A stretch of 64,000 nt of DNA from Verrucomicrobiia bacterium (lineage in GTDB: Bacteria; Verrucomicrobiota; Verrucomicrobiia; CAIQCK01). Where the stretch lies: assembly GCA_041651735.1 (NCBI GenBank), contig JBAZIR010000001.1, positions 799 to 64,798 on the forward strand, in the 5' to 3' direction. The position numbers were made by a program, and so were the translations under genes. Each line of letters starts with the position of its first letter. The first letter of the stretch is position 1. Positions 15,046 to 28,439 of the stretch are shown piece by piece. Under the pieces are notes generated by a model that worked only from the letters and a program-made list of their open reading frames with translations, had not been told where the DNA came from and did no database searches.

Positions 15046-15369
15046 ATGCATTGGATCTATCTCTCGCTCGCCATCGTTTTTGAAGTTGCCGGCACAACTT
15101 GCATGAAGCTCTCGGAGGGTTTTGCGAAACCGCTGCCGTCCGTGCTTCTGGCGGTATTTTACGGGGTGTCTTTCTTTTTGCTGACGATGGTCCTCAAGAA
15201 GATCGACGTGAGCGTGGCTTACGCTGTCTGGAGCGGGGTCGGTGTCGCGCTGATTTCCGTGATTGGCGTCATCTTTTTTCGTGAGCCGATGACTGTCATC
15301 AAGGCTGTTGGGACGTTGGCGATCATCGGCGGTGTGGTGGCTCTGAATGTAGCGGGTGGCGCGCATTGA
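15046..15369 (+). CDS. SMR-family small multidrug efflux protein
   Basis: 107 aa, 4 TM, with EmrE-like IYLSLAIVFEVAGTTCMKLSEGF including the conserved membrane Glu. Confidence 0.85.
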   Translation: MHWIYLSLAIVFEVAGTTCMKLSEGFAKPLPSVLLAVFYGVSFFLLTMVLKKIDVSVAYAVWSGVGVALISVIGVIFFREPMTVIKAVGTLAIIGGVVALNVAGGAH

Positions 15370-15414
15370 GCTGCGTTTTCATCCATTCGCCGCCAAGGAT
15401 CATTTTAAGTGACC

Positions 15415-15843
15415 ATGAAACCACGCAACCGCAAAACATGGGAAGAGACCGCGCTCATTCTCGCGGAGACCATCGCACACTGCCGGTCGCAGGATCCCTA
15501 TGTGCAGGTCGGGGCCTGTGCTGTCATGCAGGACAACTCGGTGAGTCTGGGCTATAACGGCCCGCCGCCGAAGATTGAGATCGACTGGTCGGACCGTGAC
15601 ACCCGGCTGGCGCGGGTCATTCACGCCGAAGTCAACGCGTTGCGGTCGGTCGGTCCCGGTGAGTGCAAGTTCCTGGCTGTCACTCTGCTGCCGTGCCGGA
15701 GTTGCATGACGTTCATTGCCTCCAAAGGCATCAAGCGGATTGTGTTCCGCGACGTTTACGAGCGCGACAAGCTGGCGTTCGCGCTGGCGAAGGAGTTCGG
15801 CATCGAACTGGTCCAGATTCCGCGGAAACGAAAGCGAGGCTGA
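15415..15843 (+). CDS. dCMP/CMP deaminase family zinc enzyme
   Basis: HAEVNAL and PCRSC zinc-ligand motifs. ATG 15415 (GTG 15409 also possible). Confidence 0.8.
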   Translation: MKPRNRKTWEETALILAETIAHCRSQDPYVQVGACAVMQDNSVSLGYNGPPPKIEIDWSDRDTRLARVIHAEVNALRSVGPGECKFLAVTLLPCRSCMTFIASKGIKRIVFRDVYERDKLAFALAKEFGIELVQIPRKRKRG

Positions 15844-15912
15844 AAGCCCGCGCCAGCCGCCTCCCAGTTTTTTGTGGCTTTTGTGCCTCCTTGTGGCTCA
15901 TAAAATCCCGTC

Positions 15913-17217
15913 ATGCACGATTTCAGATTCAAGGACGGCCGGCTTTGTTGCGAGGGCATCGCGCTCGAGCGGCTTGCACGCGAATGCGGGACGCCGCTTT
16001 ACGTTTACAGCCAGCACACCATCACGGACCATTTCCAGAAGCTCGACCGGGCGCTGGCGGAGCTGCCGGATCGTCTCGTCTGTTTCGCGATGAAGGCCAA
16101 CTCCAACGCCGCGATCCTGCGGTTGCTGGCCAACCTCGGCGGCGGTTTCGACATCGTCAGCGCGGGCGAGCTTTATCGCGTCGTGCAGGCCGGCGGCGAT
16201 CCGCACAAATGCGTCTTCGCCGGCGTCGGCAAAACGGATGAGGAAATCCGCTACGCTTTGGCGCAGGGCATCTATTGCTTCAACGTCGAGAGCGTGCCGG
16301 AGATCGAGCGCATCAACCGGCTCGCGCAGGAGATCAACGAGCGCGCGCCCATCGCCATCCGCGTCAACCCGAACGTCGAGGCGCACACGCACGCGAAGAT
16401 CACCACCGGCACCTACGAGAACAAGTTCGGCATCGCGATCGAAGACGTGGCGGCGGTCTATGCCCGCGCCGCGAAACTGCCGGGCATCCGCATCCGCGGG
16501 GTGCAGATGCACATCGGTTCGCAGATCACCTCCGTCGGCCCCTTCGTGAAGGCGGTGAAGAAGGCGCTGGCGCTCGTGAAGGAACTCAAGCATCTCTACG
16601 ATATTGAGTTCTTCAGCATCGGCGGCGGCATTGGCATTTGCTACGACCCGGCGCTGGAGAGCGCGACACCGGAATGGTGGCGGCGCAATCCGAAGGCCCG
16701 CACCTGGCTCACGCCGCAGCGTTACGCCGCGAGCATCGTGCCGTTGCTGGCGCCGCTCGGTTTGCGCATCCTCATCGAGCCGGGCCGGTTCATCATCGGC
16801 AACGCCGGCGCTTTGGTGACGCGGGTGCAGTATGTAAAGTCCACGCCGGAGAAAACCTTCGTCATCGTGGACGCTGGCATGAACGACCTTATCCGGCCGG
16901 CGTTCTACGACTCGTATCACCAGATTGTCCCACTGCGGAAGACACGCGGCACGCTCGTGGCCGATGTGGTTGGACCGATCTGCGAGAGTGGTGATTATTT
17001 CGCCAAGAACCGCCGGGTCGCCGCCGTGCGCGAGGGCGACGGCCTTGCCTTGCTGAGCGCCGGCGCTTACGGCATGGCGATGGCTTCAAACTACAACTCG
17101 CGTCCGCTTGCCGCCGAAGTGCTGGTCAACGGCAGCCGTTACGCCGTCGTTCGTGCGCGCCAGACGGCCGAAGATCTGACCCGCGGCGAGAAAGTGGCCG
17201 GCTGGCTGAAGGAATGA
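15913..17217 (+). CDS. lysA: diaminopimelate decarboxylase
   Basis: FAMKANSN PLP-lysine region and ...GPICESGD... motif. 434 aa, group IV decarboxylase architecture. Confidence 0.92.
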   Translation: MHDFRFKDGRLCCEGIALERLARECGTPLYVYSQHTITDHFQKLDRALAELPDRLVCFAMKANSNAAILRLLANLGGGFDIVSAGELYRVVQAGGDPHKCVFAGVGKTDEEIRYALAQGIYCFNVESVPEIERINRLAQEINERAPIAIRVNPNVEAHTHAKITTGTYENKFGIAIEDVAAVYARAAKLPGIRIRGVQMHIGSQITSVGPFVKAVKKALALVKELKHLYDIEFFSIGGGIGICYDPALESATPEWWRRNPKARTWLTPQRYAASIVPLLAPLGLRILIEPGRFIIGNAGALVTRVQYVKSTPEKTFVIVDAGMNDLIRPAFYDSYHQIVPLRKTRGTLVADVVGPICESGDYFAKNRRVAAVREGDGLALLSAGAYGMAMASNYNSRPLAAEVLVNGSRYAVVRARQTAEDLTRGEKVAGWLKE

Positions 17218-17223
17218 GCTGTC

Positions 17224-17454
17224 ATGGCAACCTACGTTTACGAAACCATCCCGGCGGCTGGCGGTGAAGTGCGCCGTTACGAAATCCGCCAGAGTATGAA
17301 GGATGCGCCGCTGACGAAGCACCCGGAAACGGGCGAGCCGATCCGGCGTGTCATCACGGGCGGCTTGGGCCTGATTGGTGTGGGCAGCCGCGGAGGGCCG
17401 TCGGCCGCGCCGCGCCGCCCCTCGCACGGTGGCGGATGCAGTTGTTGTCACTGA
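17224..17454 (+). CDS. FmdB-like small protein lacking the zinc-ribbon cysteines
   Basis: MATYVYETIP...YEIRQSMKDAPLTKHPETGEPIRRVI follows the FmdB/CxxC_CxxC_SSSS spacing, but both CxxC pairs are replaced. C-terminal GGGCSCCH. Confidence 0.5.
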   Translation: MATYVYETIPAAGGEVRRYEIRQSMKDAPLTKHPETGEPIRRVITGGLGLIGVGSRGGPSAAPRRPSHGGGCSCCH

Positions 17455-17484: not shown

Positions 17485-18183
17485 TCACGGTGCGGAATAA
17501 ATCATCCAGAGGCCGCCGAGGAGCACCAGTACGCCGCAGGTTTTCTTCACGATGGCGAGTCCCTTGGATTGTTCGTTCCAGCTCAGGTATCGCTGCACTA
17601 TCTCGGTGAACGTGCCTGCCAGCACGATGACGGCGCAATGGCCGATGCCGTAGGCCAGCAACAGCGACGCGCCATAGAGAGGGGCGGACTTTGCCAGCTT
17701 GAAGGTTACCGCCAGCATCGGCGCCATGTAGGCGAACGTGCATGGGCCGAGCGCGATGCCGAAGACCAGGCCGAGGATGAACGCCGCGAGCAGTCCGCGC
17801 CGCTTCATGTTCACCTGACCCGGCCCGGACCACGGCATGGGAATGACCCCGAGCAGATGCAGGCCGACGAGGAAGAAAATCGCCGCGACGAAATAGTTCG
17901 CCCACCCGCCCACGTCGCCCATCATCCGGCCAGCGGCGGCGGTGGCGACGCCGATGACGGCGATGGTCAGCAGGATGCCCACTGAGAACAGTGTCGCAAT
18001 CCAGAACGCGCGCGCGGTGCTCACGCGGCCCTGGCCGCTGATGAAACCGACGATGAGCGGGATGCTCGCAAGATGGCAGGGACTGAGAAGAACGCTGAGC
18101 ACGCCCCAAACCGCCGACGCTCCGAGCGCAATCAGCGGAGAGCCTTCGACGGCCTGGCTAAGTTGGGTGAAGAGTTGTTCCAT
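17485..18183 (-). CDS. ccdA: cytochrome c biogenesis / thiol-disulfide transporter CcdA (DsbD core) family
   Basis: 6-TM protein with the two conserved membrane cysteines (LLSPCHL and ALGPCTF). Confidence 0.8.
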   Translation of the reverse strand: MEQLFTQLSQAVEGSPLIALGASAVWGVLSVLLSPCHLASIPLIVGFISGQGRVSTARAFWIATLFSVGILLTIAVIGVATAAAGRMMGDVGGWANYFVAAIFFLVGLHLLGVIPMPWSGPGQVNMKRRGLLAAFILGLVFGIALGPCTFAYMAPMLAVTFKLAKSAPLYGASLLLAYGIGHCAVIVLAGTFTEIVQRYLSWNEQSKGLAIVKKTCGVLVLLGGLWMIYSAP

Positions 18184-18192
18184 GCCAGCCGG

Positions 18193-18666
18193 CTATTGGG
18201 TTCCTGTCTTGGCGCACTCGTGTTCCTTGACTAAACGGGTTGCGATGCGCGCGGCTTCGCGAGTGAGGAATGCGCACTTTTCCCGGAGCTTGTTCTCCTT
18301 GAAAAACTTCATGCCTTCGGGTGTATCGAGACGGCAACCCATGAGCTTCTCGCAGTGGGTCGAGCCGAACTGCTGTTCGCATTCGTCCAGAAACATCCGG
18401 GCCAGCCGCTGGTTATCCTCGCGCGGCTCCGTGGGATGATTTCGGCCTGTCGCCAGGCTGATGGCAAGGACGCCGCCGCTGACGGCGCCGCAGATGTCAC
18501 CTGTCCGCGCCACGCCGCCACACAGGCCCGTCGCAATTCGAGGGATGATTTCGGAACGGATGTCGAGGCTCTCCGCGATGGCTTGGAGCACGCTTTCGGC
18601 GCAGCAGAAGCCTTGCTGGAAAAGTTCCGCAGCTCGTTCTGCAACCTGGTCGGGTGTCTGTTTCAA
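18193..18666 (-). CDS. C_GCAxxG_C_C family putative redox protein
   Basis: GFCCAESVLQAI ... GLCGGV ... GDICGAVSGG ... C pattern characteristic of the family. Confidence 0.75.
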   Translation of the reverse strand: MKQTPDQVAERAAELFQQGFCCAESVLQAIAESLDIRSEIIPRIATGLCGGVARTGDICGAVSGGVLAISLATGRNHPTEPREDNQRLARMFLDECEQQFGSTHCEKLMGCRLDTPEGMKFFKENKLREKCAFLTREAARIATRLVKEHECAKTGTQ

Positions 18667-18673
18667 AGCTCCC

Positions 18674-19105
18674 TCACTTTAGGCGATTTGTTCCGCCGAA
18701 GTCGAAGCCGAGTTCCTTCCACTTCGCCAGCATGTCTTCCTTGGCAAAGAATCCCGTGTGGCGGAACAACTCCTTGCCGTCGGCGTTGAAGAAGATTTGC
18801 GTCGGGATGATCTCGACAGCCTGTTTTTGCGCCACGTCGGGATTCTTCCACACGTCAATGAACTCCACGTCCAGCCTGCCGGCGTATTCCTTCTTCATCT
18901 CTTCCAGGATGGGCGCCATCGCTTTGCAGGGAATGCACTTGTCCGCGCCAAGATCGAGGAGTCTGGGAATCTTTGCGGCAGATTGGGTTGCCGGCGGGCT
19001 GGCAACACCGGTGGACGCAGGGAGCCGGCTCTGTTTGAGCACGACGACTCCCGCGACAAGCGCGATGAGCGCCACGACGATCATAGCCTTGGCTGATGTT
19101 TTCAT
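18674..19105 (-). CDS. membrane-anchored (periplasm-facing) thioredoxin-fold protein
   Basis: N-terminal anchor AMIVVALIALVAGVVVL, then LLDLGADKCIPCKAMAPILEE with a CxxC active site. Confidence 0.8.
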   Translation of the reverse strand: MKTSAKAMIVVALIALVAGVVVLKQSRLPASTGVASPPATQSAAKIPRLLDLGADKCIPCKAMAPILEEMKKEYAGRLDVEFIDVWKNPDVAQKQAVEIIPTQIFFNADGKELFRHTGFFAKEDMLAKWKELGFDFGGTNRLK

Positions 19106-19128
19106 GGGAGGAACACAATCCAGCAGGA

Positions 19129-19638
19129 TCAGCTCTGGAGCATCGGCCGCGCGGCGTCGGCGGCTTTGGCGATGGCTTCGGCGGTGGCGGGCGTCTTGCC
19201 CTTCTCCATGCCGAGTTCGTAGAGCTTCAAGTGGGCGAACTTGGAGAAGCCCGCGACTTCAAGCGTCTTGCGGGCGCACTCCAACGGACAGCCGTCTATC
19301 ACAAGCACCTTCGCCGCGCATTTGGTTGTCTCCACGATGCCGGGCACGCGCCCGCCGATGCCGGCCAGACAGAACATCCGGCCCACGCCTTCGGCCATGA
19401 GCTTGCGCGCGGTTTGGTCTGCGATGGCCCCGACGTCCGCCGAGCCGGAACAGGGGAAGATCAATTTCGGCGCGACCCCGCAGGCGCACACAGGCGCGGC
19501 ATTGGCTTTGGTGTCCTTCGACGTTTGTTCCGCGCCTCTGGCCACTGTGACGGCCAAAGCGCCGGCGGCGGCTGAGCCGGCCGCGCCGATGAATTGTCTG
19601 CGATTCACTTTCGGTTTCATGGCTTCCTTTCGTTTCAT
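19129..19638 (-). CDS. DGC-domain (putative zinc-binding) protein with twin-arginine leader
   Basis: NRRQFIGAAGSAAAGALAV Tat-type leader. LIFPCSGSADVG...CLAGIGG...VLVIDGCPLECARK matches the DGC domain pattern. Start at 19638 or 19620. Confidence 0.7.
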   Translation of the reverse strand: MKRKEAMKPKVNRRQFIGAAGSAAAGALAVTVARGAEQTSKDTKANAAPVCACGVAPKLIFPCSGSADVGAIADQTARKLMAEGVGRMFCLAGIGGRVPGIVETTKCAAKVLVIDGCPLECARKTLEVAGFSKFAHLKLYELGMEKGKTPATAEAIAKAADAARPMLQS

Positions 19639-19672
19639 GGTTTCATCGTTGCCAAGCTGCGGGCCGCGAGGA

Positions 19673-19906
19673 TCAGGCGAGTAGCTTCTTGATTTCTTCC
19701 ACCGACGGCACTTTGCCGGCGATTTTGAGAGTACCGTTGATCACCAGCGCCGGCGTCATCATCACGCGCAGAGCTGTGATCTGCCTGTGGTCAGTGATCT
19801 TCTCCAGGTTGTATTCCAAGCCGAGTTCTTTCGCGGCCTGTTCCGTTGCGCGTGCCAGCTGCTGACAGCGGCTGCAACCAGGTCCAAGTACGAGCAGGCT
19901 GATCAT
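19673..19906 (-). CDS. mini-thioredoxin (redox-active disulfide protein 2 / MTH895 type)
   Basis: 77 aa, with LVLGPGCSRCQQL ... MMTPALVINGTLKIAGKVPSVEEIKKLL. Confidence 0.8.
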   Translation of the reverse strand: MISLLVLGPGCSRCQQLARATEQAAKELGLEYNLEKITDHRQITALRVMMTPALVINGTLKIAGKVPSVEEIKKLLA

Positions 19907-19932
19907 GGTTTCTCCAGATTCCACAGACGCGG

Positions 19933-20166
19933 CTAGGCCAGCAGCTTTTTGACGTCATTCACCGACGGCACTTTGCCCACAACCTTGACGACGCCGTCCA
20001 CGACGAGCGCCGGGGTCATCATCACGCCGAAGTTCATGATGGCGTTGATATCGGTGACTTTTTCAAGTTGGTAATCAAGGTTTAGCGACTTGGCGGCTTG
20101 TTCGGCGGTCTCCGCCAGTTTTGTGCACTTTGCACAACCGGTTCCGAGAATTTGCAGTTTCTTCAT
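19933..20166 (-). CDS. mini-thioredoxin (redox-active disulfide protein 2 / MTH895 type), paralogue
   Basis: 77 aa, with LQILGTGCAKCTKL ... MMTPALVVDGVVKVVGKVPSVNDVKKLL. Confidence 0.8.
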   Translation of the reverse strand: MKKLQILGTGCAKCTKLAETAEQAAKSLNLDYQLEKVTDINAIMNFGVMMTPALVVDGVVKVVGKVPSVNDVKKLLA

Positions 20167-20186
20167 CGTTTTCCTTTCCATCGAAA

Positions 20187-21509
20187 TCAAGGGAAGAAGT
20201 ATCCGAAAAGCATGCCGGTGGTTGTGCCCATGATGACCACCAGCACCGTGAACACGACAGTCTTCTTCAATCCCATGATACTACGCAATACCAGCATGCT
20301 CGGCAATGACAAGGCTGGCCCAGCCAGCAACAGCGTCATCATCGGCCCGGAATGCATGCCAAGTTTGCGCAGCGCCTCACAGATGGGAATCTCGGTGAGC
20401 GTTGCAAAATACCAGAACGCGCCGATGACGCTGGCGACGAGGTTTGAGAGCAGCGAGTTGTCGCCGACCAGACCCGCAACCACTTTATCCGGCAGCAGAG
20501 CGCCGACGAAGCCGGTGACGAAGACGCCGCCAAAGAGCAGCGGGACGATCATCTTGGCAAAGTCCCAAGTGTTGGTCATCCACGAGCCGATCTCGTCACG
20601 CGTCAGCCAGCGCCACGACATCCACAGCACAGCCAAACCCATCGCCCCCGCCAGATACCAGCGGGCGTGATAGACCGACATGACCCACGTTTTGGCTTCC
20701 TCGACTTGCGCGATGTCTTTCTTGGGCAGCGTCACCTTTTCGCCGCTGGCTTGGCCCTTCCAATCCTGCTGAAGCTGGAATACCACTTCATCCTTCGTCT
20801 CTTGCAGTGTAACGGCGGCAAACTGGCCGCCGTCGTTCGTCCGCACGACGACGTTGCCGGGGTTGAACCAATCGCTGAACACCAGAAACGCCACCATGCA
20901 ACCGAGGAACGTGGAAGTCTTCCAGAGCGGACGGTGCGGCGCGTCGTCGTCCGGCATTTGTGGCTGTGCGTTGATGCGGTGTTGTTCTTCGCGCCGGAAG
21001 ATCAACGCCATCAGCAGGCCGATGAGGATCGAGAACGCGATGGCGCCGACCGCACGCCCGACGCCGATGTTAAAGCCCAGCACGCGGGCCGAGAGGAAGA
21101 TCGCCAGCACGTTGATCGCCGGGCCGGAGTAGAGAAACGCCGCCGCCGGGCCGAGGCCCGCGCCGAGCTTGTAGATGCCCGCGAACATCGGCAGCACACT
21201 GCACGAGCAGACGGCCAGGATCGTGCCGGACACCGACGCGACGCTGTAGGCCGTGACCTTGTTGGCCTTCGGGCCGAGATGGCGCAGCACCGCCTGCTGC
21301 GAGAGGAACGTGCTGATGGCTCCCGCGATGAACATCGCCGGTACGACGCACGCCAGCGTGTGGTTGCGGACATACCATTGGAGCAGCTTGAACGCTTCGA
21401 TGATGGCGGCGTTGATCTTCGGATTGGCCAGCGGCAGGAAGTAGGCGACCAGGAAAATGCCCGCGATCCAGCCGAAGGTTTTCAGTTCCTTCTTTACGCC
21501 CTCATTCAT
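20187..21509 (-). CDS. COG0701-type permease (ArsP-like) with central soluble insert
   Basis: Two homologous halves: VCSCSVLPMFAGIYKLGAG..LYSGPAINV and TEIPICEALRKLGMHSGP..LAGPALSLPS. About 100 aa of non-hydrophobic insert lies between them. Start at ATG 21509. Confidence 0.75.
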   Translation of the reverse strand: MNEGVKKELKTFGWIAGIFLVAYFLPLANPKINAAIIEAFKLLQWYVRNHTLACVVPAMFIAGAISTFLSQQAVLRHLGPKANKVTAYSVASVSGTILAVCSCSVLPMFAGIYKLGAGLGPAAAFLYSGPAINVLAIFLSARVLGFNIGVGRAVGAIAFSILIGLLMALIFRREEQHRINAQPQMPDDDAPHRPLWKTSTFLGCMVAFLVFSDWFNPGNVVVRTNDGGQFAAVTLQETKDEVVFQLQQDWKGQASGEKVTLPKKDIAQVEEAKTWVMSVYHARWYLAGAMGLAVLWMSWRWLTRDEIGSWMTNTWDFAKMIVPLLFGGVFVTGFVGALLPDKVVAGLVGDNSLLSNLVASVIGAFWYFATLTEIPICEALRKLGMHSGPMMTLLLAGPALSLPSMLVLRSIMGLKKTVVFTVLVVIMGTTTGMLFGYFFP

Positions 21510-21546
21510 GTTGTTTTCCTTTTCTTTGTGCCGAAGGAAAGCGTGG

Positions 21547-21570
21547 CTATTTAGCCAACTAGCCAAGTAT
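21547..21570. promoter_or_regulatory. imperfect palindrome related to the arsR operator candidate, between arsR and the permease
   Basis: CTATTTAGCCAACTAGCCAAGTAT shares TATTTAGCCA with the palindrome at 21920-21943. Confidence 0.3.
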
Positions 21571-21585
21571 TCGGCAAATAAAAAA

Positions 21586-21906
21586 TCACCGCGTTTGCAG
21601 CTCTTCCTCCTTGGCCGAGTTCTGTCGCACGGCGGTCACACACTGGAAAAAGTTCATCACGCACCGCGTCTTGAGCCGGTAGAACACCTGCACGCCGCGT
21701 TTGTCATCCTCCACGATGCCGGCATATTTCAGCAGCGTGAGATGTTTCGAGACGGTGGACATTTCCGATCCGACCATCTCCGTCAACTCGCACACACATC
21801 GCTCGCCCCTAGCCAGTTCATCCACGATGAACAAGCGCGTGGGGTGAGCCAGCGCCTTGAGGACGGCGGCCTGTGCCTTGAACTTGGCTGGCAATGTTTG
21901 AGCCAT
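21586..21906 (-). CDS. arsR: ArsR/SmtB-family metalloregulator
   Basis: LKALAHPTRLFIV, CVC metal site (ERCVCELTEM) and HTH STVSKHLTLLKYAGIV. Start at ATG 21906. Confidence 0.85.
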   Translation of the reverse strand: MAQTLPAKFKAQAAVLKALAHPTRLFIVDELARGERCVCELTEMVGSEMSTVSKHLTLLKYAGIVEDDKRGVQVFYRLKTRCVMNFFQCVTAVRQNSAKEEELQTR

Positions 21907-21919
21907 AAATGACAGCGGT

Positions 21920-21943
21920 ATATTTAGCCATTTGCCTAAATAT
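21920..21943. promoter_or_regulatory. candidate ArsR operator
   Basis: Perfect 8-bp arms ATATTTAG (21920-21927) / CTAAATAT (21936-21943) with an 8-nt spacer, 14 nt upstream of the arsR start. Confidence 0.4.
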
Positions 21944-22066
21944 GTCAAGCATCCGTTTTCCGCGTGAGTGCCCCAACTTGGTCCACCCCCAAAAACGTGA
22001 GGATTACTGCGCTGGCCACGCCGCCGCCTGCCGTGTGACCGAAGTAACTGCGCGCGATGTCTTGCT

Positions 22067-28316: not shown

Positions 28317-28330
28317 GACACACCCTATAA

Positions 28331-28346
28331 TTCGTCGTATGACGAA
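28331..28346. promoter_or_regulatory. candidate operator upstream of arsR
   Basis: Perfect palindrome TTCGTC-GTAT-GACGAA, 15 nt upstream of the arsR start codon. Confidence 0.4.
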
Positions 28347-28439
28347 ATGTCAATATGAAAAGTCCCTGCCATTTTTAGGAAGCGAAACAGGAAGGGCGTG
28401 TTGCCCCACGACAGCCCGAAGGCGCCACCGCTTGTCGGT

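Follow-up and report, generated by a model that had tools for sequence, protein, structure and literature searches.

An arsR-headed accessory module joining an ArsP-type permease, small thioredoxins, a DGC-domain protein and CcdA in the arsenic-resistance island of a verrucomicrobium

Analyzing 64,000 nucleotides from a Verrucomicrobiia bacterium (assembly GCA_041651735.1, contig JBAZIR010000001.1, positions 799 to 64,798 of the forward strand; hereafter the window), we found that eight minus-strand genes at 17485-21948, which encode an ArsR repressor (ArsR2), an ArsP-like permease, two 77-residue mini-thioredoxins, a DGC-domain protein, a membrane-anchored thioredoxin, a C_GCAxxG_C_C protein and CcdA, form the arsR2-headed distal, accessory module of a 15-gene ars island in a groundwater verrucomicrobium. 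This assignment follows from the arsR1-arsC-arsM-acr3 set and the DevBCA-type exporter that lie directly upstream on the same strand. A first-pass annotation of the sequence had presented the eight genes as an operon; the genes are real, but the canonical ars genes, which begin 3.3 kb upstream (tblastn, NCBIfam), had been overlooked. Across the whole array the sole sizeable gap is the 160 nt preceding arsR2. Directly observed are the content, order and spacing of the genes, the neighboring ars genes, the cross-phylum conservation of both cassette and operator, and, in another organism, an arsenic response of the homologous four-gene core.

All eight open reading frames (ORFs) were recovered with the expected families by an ORF survey, Pfam and NCBIfam (Table 1). 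Their common direction and spacing of 7-76 nt, as first described, were borne out after correction of the starts, with gaps of 76, 20, 26, 52, 23, 7 and 9 nt in transcription order. Every motif quoted at first pass (CVC, CSC, PIC, GTGCAKC, GPGCSRC, NRRQF, CIPC, SPC and GPC) is in the sequence, although the two mini-thioredoxins had been given in the wrong order, GTGCAKC being transcribed before GPGCSRC. The arsR2 gene, previously extended to TTG 21948, most likely starts at ATG 21906. For the DGC gene, the downstream of two ATGs carries the better Shine-Dalgarno sequence, and ATG 19620 is the most likely start because of this good Shine-Dalgarno sequence and because homologues begin MKxKVNRR; the gap to mini-thioredoxin 2 is 52 nt from this start and 34 nt from the upstream ATG. 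Both mini-thioredoxins belong to the 'MTH895/ArsE family' (TIGR00412), above its curated cut-off, and the C_GCAxxG_C_C protein, which has no signal sequence and is predicted to be cytoplasmic, scores 66.9 bits against the cut-off of 47.4 for TIGR01909 (NCBIfam).

The cassette is widespread around relatives of the DGC gene. A one-genome-per-species scan returned 574 DGC relatives, and the best 80 loci were examined, being annotated with the window proteins, with the ars genes of locus L003 and by unbiased clustering of the remaining ORFs; because many contigs are incomplete, the counts over these 80 loci are lower bounds. A mini-thioredoxin adjoins the DGC gene in 71 of the 80 loci, and near it we found an anchored thioredoxin in 55, an ArsR in 54, an ArsP in 52, a CcdA in 39, an ArsF-family anchored CPTC protein in 36 and an ArsG-family DsbD_2 protein in 30, the last almost mutually exclusive with CcdA. 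The order ArsR-ArsP-mini-thioredoxin (ArsE)-DGC, followed by an anchored thioredoxin-like protein and a DsbD-superfamily protein, recurs in at least eight phyla, with hosts including Verrucomicrobia, Lentisphaerae, Kiritimatiellae, Planctomycetes, Hydrogenedentes, Acidobacteria, Omnitrophota and Desulfovibrionaceae. Gene neighborhoods, the check proposed at first pass, thus show linkage conserved well beyond the known permease/mini-thioredoxin pair, which indicates that the genes form a functional unit. The suspected metalloid link is likewise strengthened, by the ars genes upstream in the window, by arsC, arsM or acr3 within 8 kb in 46 of the 80 loci, and by a homologous operon that responds to arsenic, described below.

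The exact set of seven structural genes recurs only in L006 and L008 among the 80 loci. These two, its closest relatives, share about 91-95% nucleotide identity with the window, L006 being a groundwater Verrucomicrobia metagenome-assembled genome (JACRJX010000043.1; ~95%), and each has a single block, arsR-arsC-arsM-acr3-arsP-trx-trx-DGC-trx-CGCAxxG-ccdA, in which arsP directly follows acr3 and the DevBCA trio is not at this position. Relative to them, the window carries 3.8 kb extra, comprising the ABC exporter, arsR2 and the arsP 5' end, and its arsR2 segment matches L007 at 87.6%. In L003 the order is arsC-arsM-acr3-arsP-Trx3-DGC(Tat)-Trx-DsbD_TM. Of the 80 loci, L006 and L008 alone have a C_GCAxxG_C_C gene within the cassette; it is missing from the cassettes of L003-L005 and L007. 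The two ArsE copies are found side by side in L006, in L008 and in L004/L005, which are metagenome loci, and a best match to mini-thioredoxin 2, the second paralogue, is seen in only four of the 80 genome loci. We take the C_GCAxxG_C_C gene and the extra ArsE copy to be recent gains of this lineage. Together with a DGC protein predicted to be exported by twin-arginine translocation (Tat) and a classical thioredoxin with CcdA, they make up the local variations of the window's cassette.

The core of the system has been described before. In Pseudodesulfovibrio mercurii ND132, 'Operon C' (ArsR5-ArsP-ArsE-PF08859, DND132_2311-2314) is a third ars operon that was significantly upregulated with As(III) and As(V) in RNA sequencing, its DGC protein being listed as of 'unknown function' (Gionfriddo et al., bioRxiv 10.1101/2022.10.17.512643). 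The window shares the order of this four-gene core; as described, Operon C is without an anchored thioredoxin, CcdA and C_GCAxxG gene, with no Tat leader reported, whereas the window has all of these. Two Desulfovibrionaceae/Desulfomicrobiaceae loci, L047 and L071, are among the 80 closest DGC loci. A literature search for PF08859, COG4273 or 'DGC domain' returned the ND132 preprint alone, the other matches being papers on diguanylate cyclases. The novelty claimed at first pass is thus overstated, the ArsR-ArsP-ArsE-DGC core having been described in 2022 and ArsE, ArsF and ArsG already having names: the system is an ars-island accessory cassette of an already known kind and not categorically new.

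The regulator and its operators are conserved along with the cassette. ArsR2 carries the alpha3 CVC site (RCVCEL; C37 and C39) and a C-terminal pair, C82 and C89, while the third R773-type cysteine is absent; the ArsRs that head such cassettes make up a subfamily in which the four cysteines are kept in 39-42 of 42 sequences (C37 in 42, C39 in 39). The palindrome noted at 21920-21943 proved real, and it belongs to a type of putative operator that other phyla conserve as well. This site, O1 (21943-21920, minus), reads ATATTTAGGC-N4-GGCTAAATAT, with 9 of 10 arm positions complementary, and overlaps the putative arsR2 promoter, consisting of TTGACA at 21948-21943, a 16-nt spacer and TAAATA at 21926-21921, all on the minus strand. 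A 22-bp operator of the type TATTTGGCTA..TGCCAAATA stands just upstream of the cassette ArsR in 16 of 41 loci from other phyla, and a search for it gave 56 matches in real versus 7 in shuffled sequence. The window has copies at 21921-21942 and 21548-21569, and elsewhere examples lie in L038 (3534-3555), L068 (4567-4588) and L025 (5538-5559). A second copy between arsR and arsP was found in 4 of the 41 loci counted (examples being L007, L047, L051, L056 and L067); at the window's second copy, O2, TTGCCG-N18-TAAATA may serve as an internal promoter. A terminator scan gave weak, mostly intragenic matches only, and neither this nor a sigma-70 promoter scan was informative, so that we infer the limits of the transcription units. 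The upstream arsR1 gene has its own promoter-like site, TTGACA-N18-TATAGG (window 28324-28353, minus), overlapped by a palindrome, TTCGTC-N4-GACGAA (28346-28331), that differs from O1 and O2. This unlikeness to the arsR2 operator suggests that the two ArsR paralogues, with their distinct operators, govern two separately tuned units of the island.

The permease leads to the question of what is exported. It is an ArsP of the long type, with a central region of ~150 residues between two transmembrane (TM) bundles; a long type with an insert of ~100 residues has been described (PMC2963123). Of the two motifs singled out at first pass, CSCS and PIC, the former held up: CSC (C101 and C103) is kept in 59 of 60 cassette ArsPs and may be the counterpart of the two conserved cysteines that ArsP needs for transport. 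The PIC cysteine is kept in 3 of 60, and the motif was rejected as a functional site. Campylobacter jejuni ArsP is an efflux permease for trivalent methylarsenical (MAs(III)) and roxarsone (Rox(III)) (reviewed in PMC6205960); it shares with the window protein the Pfam family, two conserved cysteines and an ArsR-regulated ars context, whereas the window protein, at ~440 residues with its central insert, is of the long type. ArsP permeases of this kind are not known to export As(III). Two arsP clades with possibly different functions are reported in the literature. The nearest NCBIfam equivalogs of the window permease are SaoE and SO_0444, an exporter of Cu/Zn, with scores far short of either cut-off. 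They raise the prospect that the island is a general soft-metal one whose module handles something else that reacts with thiols, be it Sb, Hg or organomercury, Cu, or reactive sulfur or selenium, a prospect to which weak NCBIfam matches to BigR, TsoR and TsoB, the DevBCA exporter embedded in the island, and sister cassettes in which thioredoxin is joined to a MerB-like domain and a NosL-like one of the copper chaperone type also lend something. We nevertheless consider it quite improbable, as arsC, arsM or acr3 accompany so many of the loci and stand directly upstream in the window, ArsR2 bears an As(III)-type CVC site, arsenic induces the ND132 core operon, and all the alternative family matches fall far below their cut-offs.

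The proposed relay from cytoplasm to periplasm withstood inspection in its architecture, which comprises cytoplasmic mini-thioredoxins, a CcdA with six predicted TM segments whose Cys36 (SPC) and Cys148 (GPC) fall by hydropathy in TM1 and TM4, and a thioredoxin with one N-terminal TM segment, predicted to be signal-anchored and periplasmic. By Pfam, the CcdA is a TM core alone, without the periplasmic alpha and gamma domains of DsbD. The simplest reading is a relay that would run from a cytoplasmic mini-thioredoxin through a DsbD-like membrane protein to an anchored periplasmic thioredoxin-like protein, its last step, from CcdA to the anchored thioredoxin, being proposed because of the adjacency of the genes (gaps of 9 and 7 nt) and their conservation. 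The window pair resembles CcdA-ResA-type pathways in its six-TM CcdA with cysteines in TM1 and TM4 and its signal-anchored thioredoxin, but differs from CcdA/DsbD pathways in lying in an ars cassette and not beside genes for cytochrome c or Msr. The standard reducing pair of System II consists of CcdA and an anchored thioredoxin like ResA, and the two proteins are not diagnostic by themselves; they might be housekeeping components of cytochrome c maturation that just happen to adjoin an arsP-arsE-DGC operon. We hold this to be most improbable, since the pair, or its ArsF/ArsG substitute, follows the DGC gene in 69 of the 80 loci across many phyla, the gaps are only 7-23 nt, no ccsA or ccsB stands beside the cluster (15-25 kb ORF survey, and upstream genes examined), and in 18 loci the same thioredoxin ortholog is part of a fusion protein with a NosL-like and a MerB-like domain.

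Downstream of ArsE and DGC, a cassette carries in the same slot either CcdA with a classical anchored thioredoxin or ArsG with ArsF. ArsP is a named family, and ArsE, ArsF and ArsG are named NCBIfam families (TIGR00412, NF040494 and NF040495) that follow Chen, Zhang and Rosen 2019 (PMID 31059239). The function reported for ArsEFG is nitro-group reduction and efflux, as the family names also have it. The ArsEFG layout is like that of the window, with a cytoplasmic mini-thioredoxin, a TM-anchored thioredoxin-like protein and a DsbD-superfamily membrane protein in ars clusters; it differs in that the window's anchored thioredoxin is a classical PF00085 protein and its membrane protein a DsbD_TM/CcdA, neither of which matches ArsF or ArsG. 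One could accordingly picture an enzyme-and-efflux system, in which the thioredoxin-like proteins would act chemically on aromatic or nitro organoarsenicals, with the DsbD-like protein as an efflux permease for the product and not an electron conduit: the window mini-thioredoxins are ArsE family members, NCBIfam names ArsF a nitroreductase subunit and ArsG an aminobenzylarsenical efflux permease, these occupy the equivalent slots in 30-36 loci, and all three are cited as organoarsenical resistance determinants (PMC9144182). To us this appears distinctly unlikely, because the window thioredoxin and CcdA have no match to the ArsF and ArsG models at E up to 1 (ArsF-model representatives from other loci reach 122.8 bits), CcdA and ArsG are both of the DsbD superfamily with the paired TM cysteines typical of electron transfer, and nitroaromatic arsenicals are synthetic, yet the cassette is of ancient origin and occurs in many phyla. 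ArsG itself corresponds to Pfam DsbD_2 and is 24% identical to the window CcdA in a full-length alignment that brings both cysteine regions into register; as it also shares the slot, we doubt that it is primarily a permease, and the interchangeable presence of a bona fide CcdA argues for an electron-transfer role of the slot. An example of an ArsG-family gene is at L072 10138-10833, with further cases in 29 other loci. The window relay would then work like ArsEFG, with ArsE as the sole ArsEFG family member there.

What the relay reduces would differ between lineages. In 18 of the 80 loci, usually with CcdA next, a single protein combines the anchored CIPC thioredoxin with a NosL-like and a MerB-like (PF03243, E 3e-21) domain, and the window thioredoxin is orthologous to the thioredoxin domain of these fusions (Table 1). 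In those 18 loci the fused domains are evidently the clients of the anchored thioredoxin, and the fusion is a candidate for a lyase that would cleave organometal(loid)s in the periplasm without oxygen. To our knowledge, ArsI is the sole known C-As lyase, and it requires O2. Searches with tblastn for MerB-like, NosL-like, ArsF or ArsG genes elsewhere in the window were negative, and such candidates were rejected. The DGC protein is leaderless, and predicted to be cytoplasmic, in 64 of the 69 loci with CcdA or ArsG; the first-pass idea of a periplasmic DGC protein as the relay's client does not therefore hold in general, and the relay has other clients. In the window operon, the thioredoxin stands alone and the DGC protein is the only Cys-rich protein predicted to be exported. 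Because DGC is thioredoxin-paired elsewhere, the anchored thioredoxin may be its reductant here, an assignment that we find plausible but would rather doubt than assert.

We found the leader of the DGC protein to be genuine, as the first-pass annotation had supposed. It reads MKPKVNRRQFIGAA...ARGA/EQ, with KVNRRQFIG followed by AAGSAAAGALAVTVA and then ARGA/E, and has the Tat layout of a twin-arginine motif, an h-region and an AxA-type cleavage site. KVNRRQF (RRxF) is kept at the protein level in homologues 53-93% identical, in which the h-region varies and its indels stay in frame; on these grounds, which argue that the leader is translated, an artefact of an upstream start was rejected. Such leaders are rare: 6 of the 80 loci have one, in the window's Verrucomicrobial clade and some Planctomycetes, as do ~4 of the best 150 DGC cluster representatives, one of them a Tat-lipobox variant; Tat or Tat-lipobox variants of independent origin are present among the homologues. 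Most close homologues are of ~125 residues without a leader, and most are predicted to be cytoplasmic. The mature window protein, first described as a four-Cys protein, has conserved C45, C47, C57, C84, C111 and C115, the last five of which are invariant or near-invariant in 52 sequences; D62, R72, D109 and H130 are also invariant in this alignment. An AlphaFold2 (AF2) model shows a flavodoxin-like alpha/beta fold, with a predicted local distance difference test (pLDDT) score >90 over the domain, in which the conserved cysteines lie where strands beta1, beta2 and beta3 end and in the helix that follows. A profile search of PDB sequences gave no relative, and Foldseek of the model against the PDB gave generic flavodoxin or receiver folds only (best E 0.036), with no function to transfer.

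Two fusions shed light on the DGC domain, whose small family PF08859 comprises 1,084 clusters at 50% identity (E up to 1e-3). In four contigs ArsE is fused to DGC (P0087, L089) within an otherwise identical ArsR-ArsP-[Trx3-DGC]-Trx-DsbD_TM cassette, and in P0197 (L088 2389-3150) an ArsR half 60% identical to ArsR2, with SVR in place of CVC, is fused to DGC. These fusions suggest that DGC is a ligand-binding Cys protein that needs a thioredoxin partner, and the loss of CVC from the ArsR-DGC fusion is a hint that a site for ligand sensing can come from the DGC domain. Alternatively, DGC might bind no arsenical and instead act as a small redox enzyme with Fe-S or Zn, for instance a periplasmic reductase of pentavalent or thiolated arsenicals that draws its electrons from CcdA and the thioredoxin. 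Tat export usually marks a cofactor-loaded, pre-folded protein, and the export of DGC, the invariant D62, R72, D109 and H130 besides the cysteines, which suggest a catalytic site, the placing of cysteines at the C-terminal ends of beta1 to beta3 in a flavodoxin-like fold, and the distant homologues that adjoin YtfE, NnrS and hemerythrin all fit such an enzyme. We still think it unlikely, given that no structural or sequence relative has a known function, that most homologues are cytoplasmic, and that the ArsR-DGC fusion points to ligand sensing over catalysis. One of the distant homologues is at L086 (Ideonella plasmid NZ_CP088082.1) 5974-6387, in an NnrS-hemerythrin-DGC-U32 peptidase-YtfE-NorR neighborhood. 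The plasmid database held distant homologues only (~40% identity), in NnrS/YtfE/NorR or haloarchaeal contexts, and these neighborhoods, being distant and unrelated, were set aside as a guide to the present subfamily.

Overall, we lean, with modest confidence, towards an arsR2-controlled accessory module that would operate as follows. ArsR2 would bind O1 and O2 and be released when a trivalent arsenical engages its cysteines, and ArsP would export trivalent arsenicals, probably methylated, produced by the upstream ArsC and ArsM. The ArsE-type mini-thioredoxins would be the module's cytoplasmic reductants, acting through CcdA on the anchored thioredoxin at the periplasmic side, much as the ArsE/ArsG/ArsF trio would do in the cassettes where it takes their place. 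DGC would be a Cys-cluster protein whose ligand is the arsenical or a related compound that reacts with thiols, and it would depend on a thioredoxin partner in either compartment: cytoplasmic in most lineages, it would be served by ArsE, while in the window lineage it would be exported folded through Tat, with the anchored thioredoxin as its likely reductant.

Several observations weigh against this reading, among them the permease's nearest equivalogs and the leaderless DGC proteins of most relay-bearing loci, given above. The proposed arsR2 promoter was missed by the sigma-70 consensus scan because its weak -10 element matches at 3 of 6 positions only. Tat models place the DGC leader just below their cut-offs, at 16.6 versus 16.7 (hidden Markov model TIGR01409) and 18.1 versus 22.7 (PF10518), and the topology of the anchored thioredoxin depends solely on hydropathy. 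The ArsR-DGC fusion is known from a single contig, and Pfam's annotation suggests, as a guess, that DGC may bind zinc. Distant DGC homologues stand in nitrosative-stress or Fe-S contexts, those beside NnrS, YtfE and NorR indicating that the wider family is not restricted to arsenic. In ND132, moreover, the regulator also responded to a build-up of S-adenosylhomocysteine (SAH) (bioRxiv 10.1101/2022.10.17.512643).

Earlier work provides further points of comparison. The window's three redox determinants have been noted in ars operons in 8 instances, 7 of them with arsC, and were read as helpers of cytoplasmic ArsC (PMC2963123); DGC, Tat and C_GCAxxG, present in the window, are not mentioned there. 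The role proposed for DGC has a functional analogy in the metallochaperone ArsD, in that a small Cys-rich protein is encoded beside an arsenical exporter, whereas DGC is non-homologous, has a flavodoxin-like fold without a PDB relative, and binds arsenic by proposal only. An ars operon of Bacteroides vulgatus is said to carry, between arsR and arsD, three arsenical-induced genes of unknown function.

The coordinates of the island, its surroundings and the sister-cassette fusions are collected in Table 1. A DevB/HlyD-DevC/FtsX-DevA trio also stands beside DGC cassettes in 8-12 other loci from other phyla, and the DevBCA exporter may be another optional module of these ars islands. Near DGC cassettes we also noted a GcvH-like gene in 6 loci (listed at L007 5851-6303) and a Tat-signal flavodoxin-like/FMN-reductase-like gene in 6 loci (listed at L041 4844-5530). 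Converging on the 3' end of ccdA are four plus-strand genes (15046-17454), whose identities were read from their translations only.

Table 1. Features of the ars island and its flanks in the window, in transcription order of the island, followed by thioredoxin fusions in other loci (locus coordinates). Bits are given against family cut-offs.
Feature	Coordinates	Strand	Assignment and evidence
arsR1	28316-27951	minus	tblastn
arsC, thioredoxin-type	27975-27529	minus	tblastn; NCBIfam 153 bits vs 174 (below cut-off)
arsM	27456-26293	minus	tblastn; NCBIfam 316.8 bits vs 263
acr3	26305-25232	minus	tblastn; NCBIfam 383 bits vs 282.8
DevB/HlyD adaptor	25211-24030	minus	family assignment; between acr3 and arsR2
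DevC/FtsX permease	24033-22822	minus	family assignment; between acr3 and arsR2
DevA ABC ATPase	22825-22067	minus	family assignment; between acr3 and arsR2
arsR2	21586-21906	minus	106 aa ArsR/SmtB repressor; HTH_5 E 1.4e-12; NF033788 89.3 bits vs 55
O2, operator-like	21548-21569		76-nt arsR2-arsP spacer; contains TGGCTAAATAGCCA
arsP-like permease	20187-21509	minus	440 aa; ArsP_1 PF03773 E 2e-71, 241 bits vs 32.3
Mini-thioredoxin 1 (GTGCAKC)	19933-20166	minus	77 aa, cytoplasmic; Thioredoxin_3; TIGR00412 110.9 bits vs 62
Mini-thioredoxin 2 (GPGCSRC)	19673-19906	minus	77 aa; Thioredoxin_3; TIGR00412 95.8 bits vs 62
DGC-domain protein	19129-19620	minus	163 aa; PF08859 E 4e-27, 94.7 bits vs 27
Anchored thioredoxin (CIPC)	18674-19105	minus	143 aa; PF00085 E 5e-13; TM residues 5-23
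C_GCAxxG_C_C protein	18193-18666	minus	157 aa, TTG start; PF09719 E 2e-26, 92.9 bits vs 27
CcdA	17485-18183	minus	232 aa; DsbD_TM PF02683 E 2e-12, 47.3 bits vs 27.1
FmdB-like small ORF	17224-17454	plus	translation only
lysA	15913-17217	plus	translation only
dCMP-deaminase-like gene	15409-15843	plus	translation only
SMR-family small multidrug transporter	15046-15369	plus	translation only
Trx-NosL-MerB-like fusion	L009 3087-4391		sister cassette
Trx-NosL-MerB-like fusion	L013 8378-9856		sister cassette
Trx-NosL-MerB-like fusion	L016 2623-3996		sister cassette
Trx-NosL-MerB-like fusion	L037 8403-9881		sister cassette
Trx-NosL-MerB-like fusion	L077 6443-7738		sister cassette
Trx-NosL-MerB-like fusion	L085 8221-9729		sister cassette

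A bolder hypothesis, which we put forward as a speculation and regard as rather unlikely, is that DGC represents an unrecognised class of arsenical-binding protein, a chaperone, buffer or sensor that always has a dedicated thioredoxin, that the relay from ArsE through CcdA or ArsG to the anchored thioredoxin would serve extracytoplasmic arsenicals, and that the Tat-exported DGC would be its periplasmic client in the window. If this is true, the fused MerB-like domain would be the relay's client in sister lineages and a candidate oxygen-independent C-As lyase, and 'ArsG' would be recast as an electron conduit and not a permease. More generally, the ars islands of anaerobic and microaerophilic bacteria of the Planctomycetes-Verrucomicrobia-Chlamydiae (PVC) group carry a phylum-spanning accessory cassette, whose ArsP-ArsE-DGC core is arsenic-induced in one model organism, and the Trx-NosL-MerB-like fusions are candidates for the missing anaerobic organoarsenical lyase. 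The window presents a natural experiment in which DGC would have moved to the periplasm while the remaining cassette is unchanged, so that what the CcdA/thioredoxin (or ArsG/ArsF) relay reduces becomes directly testable.

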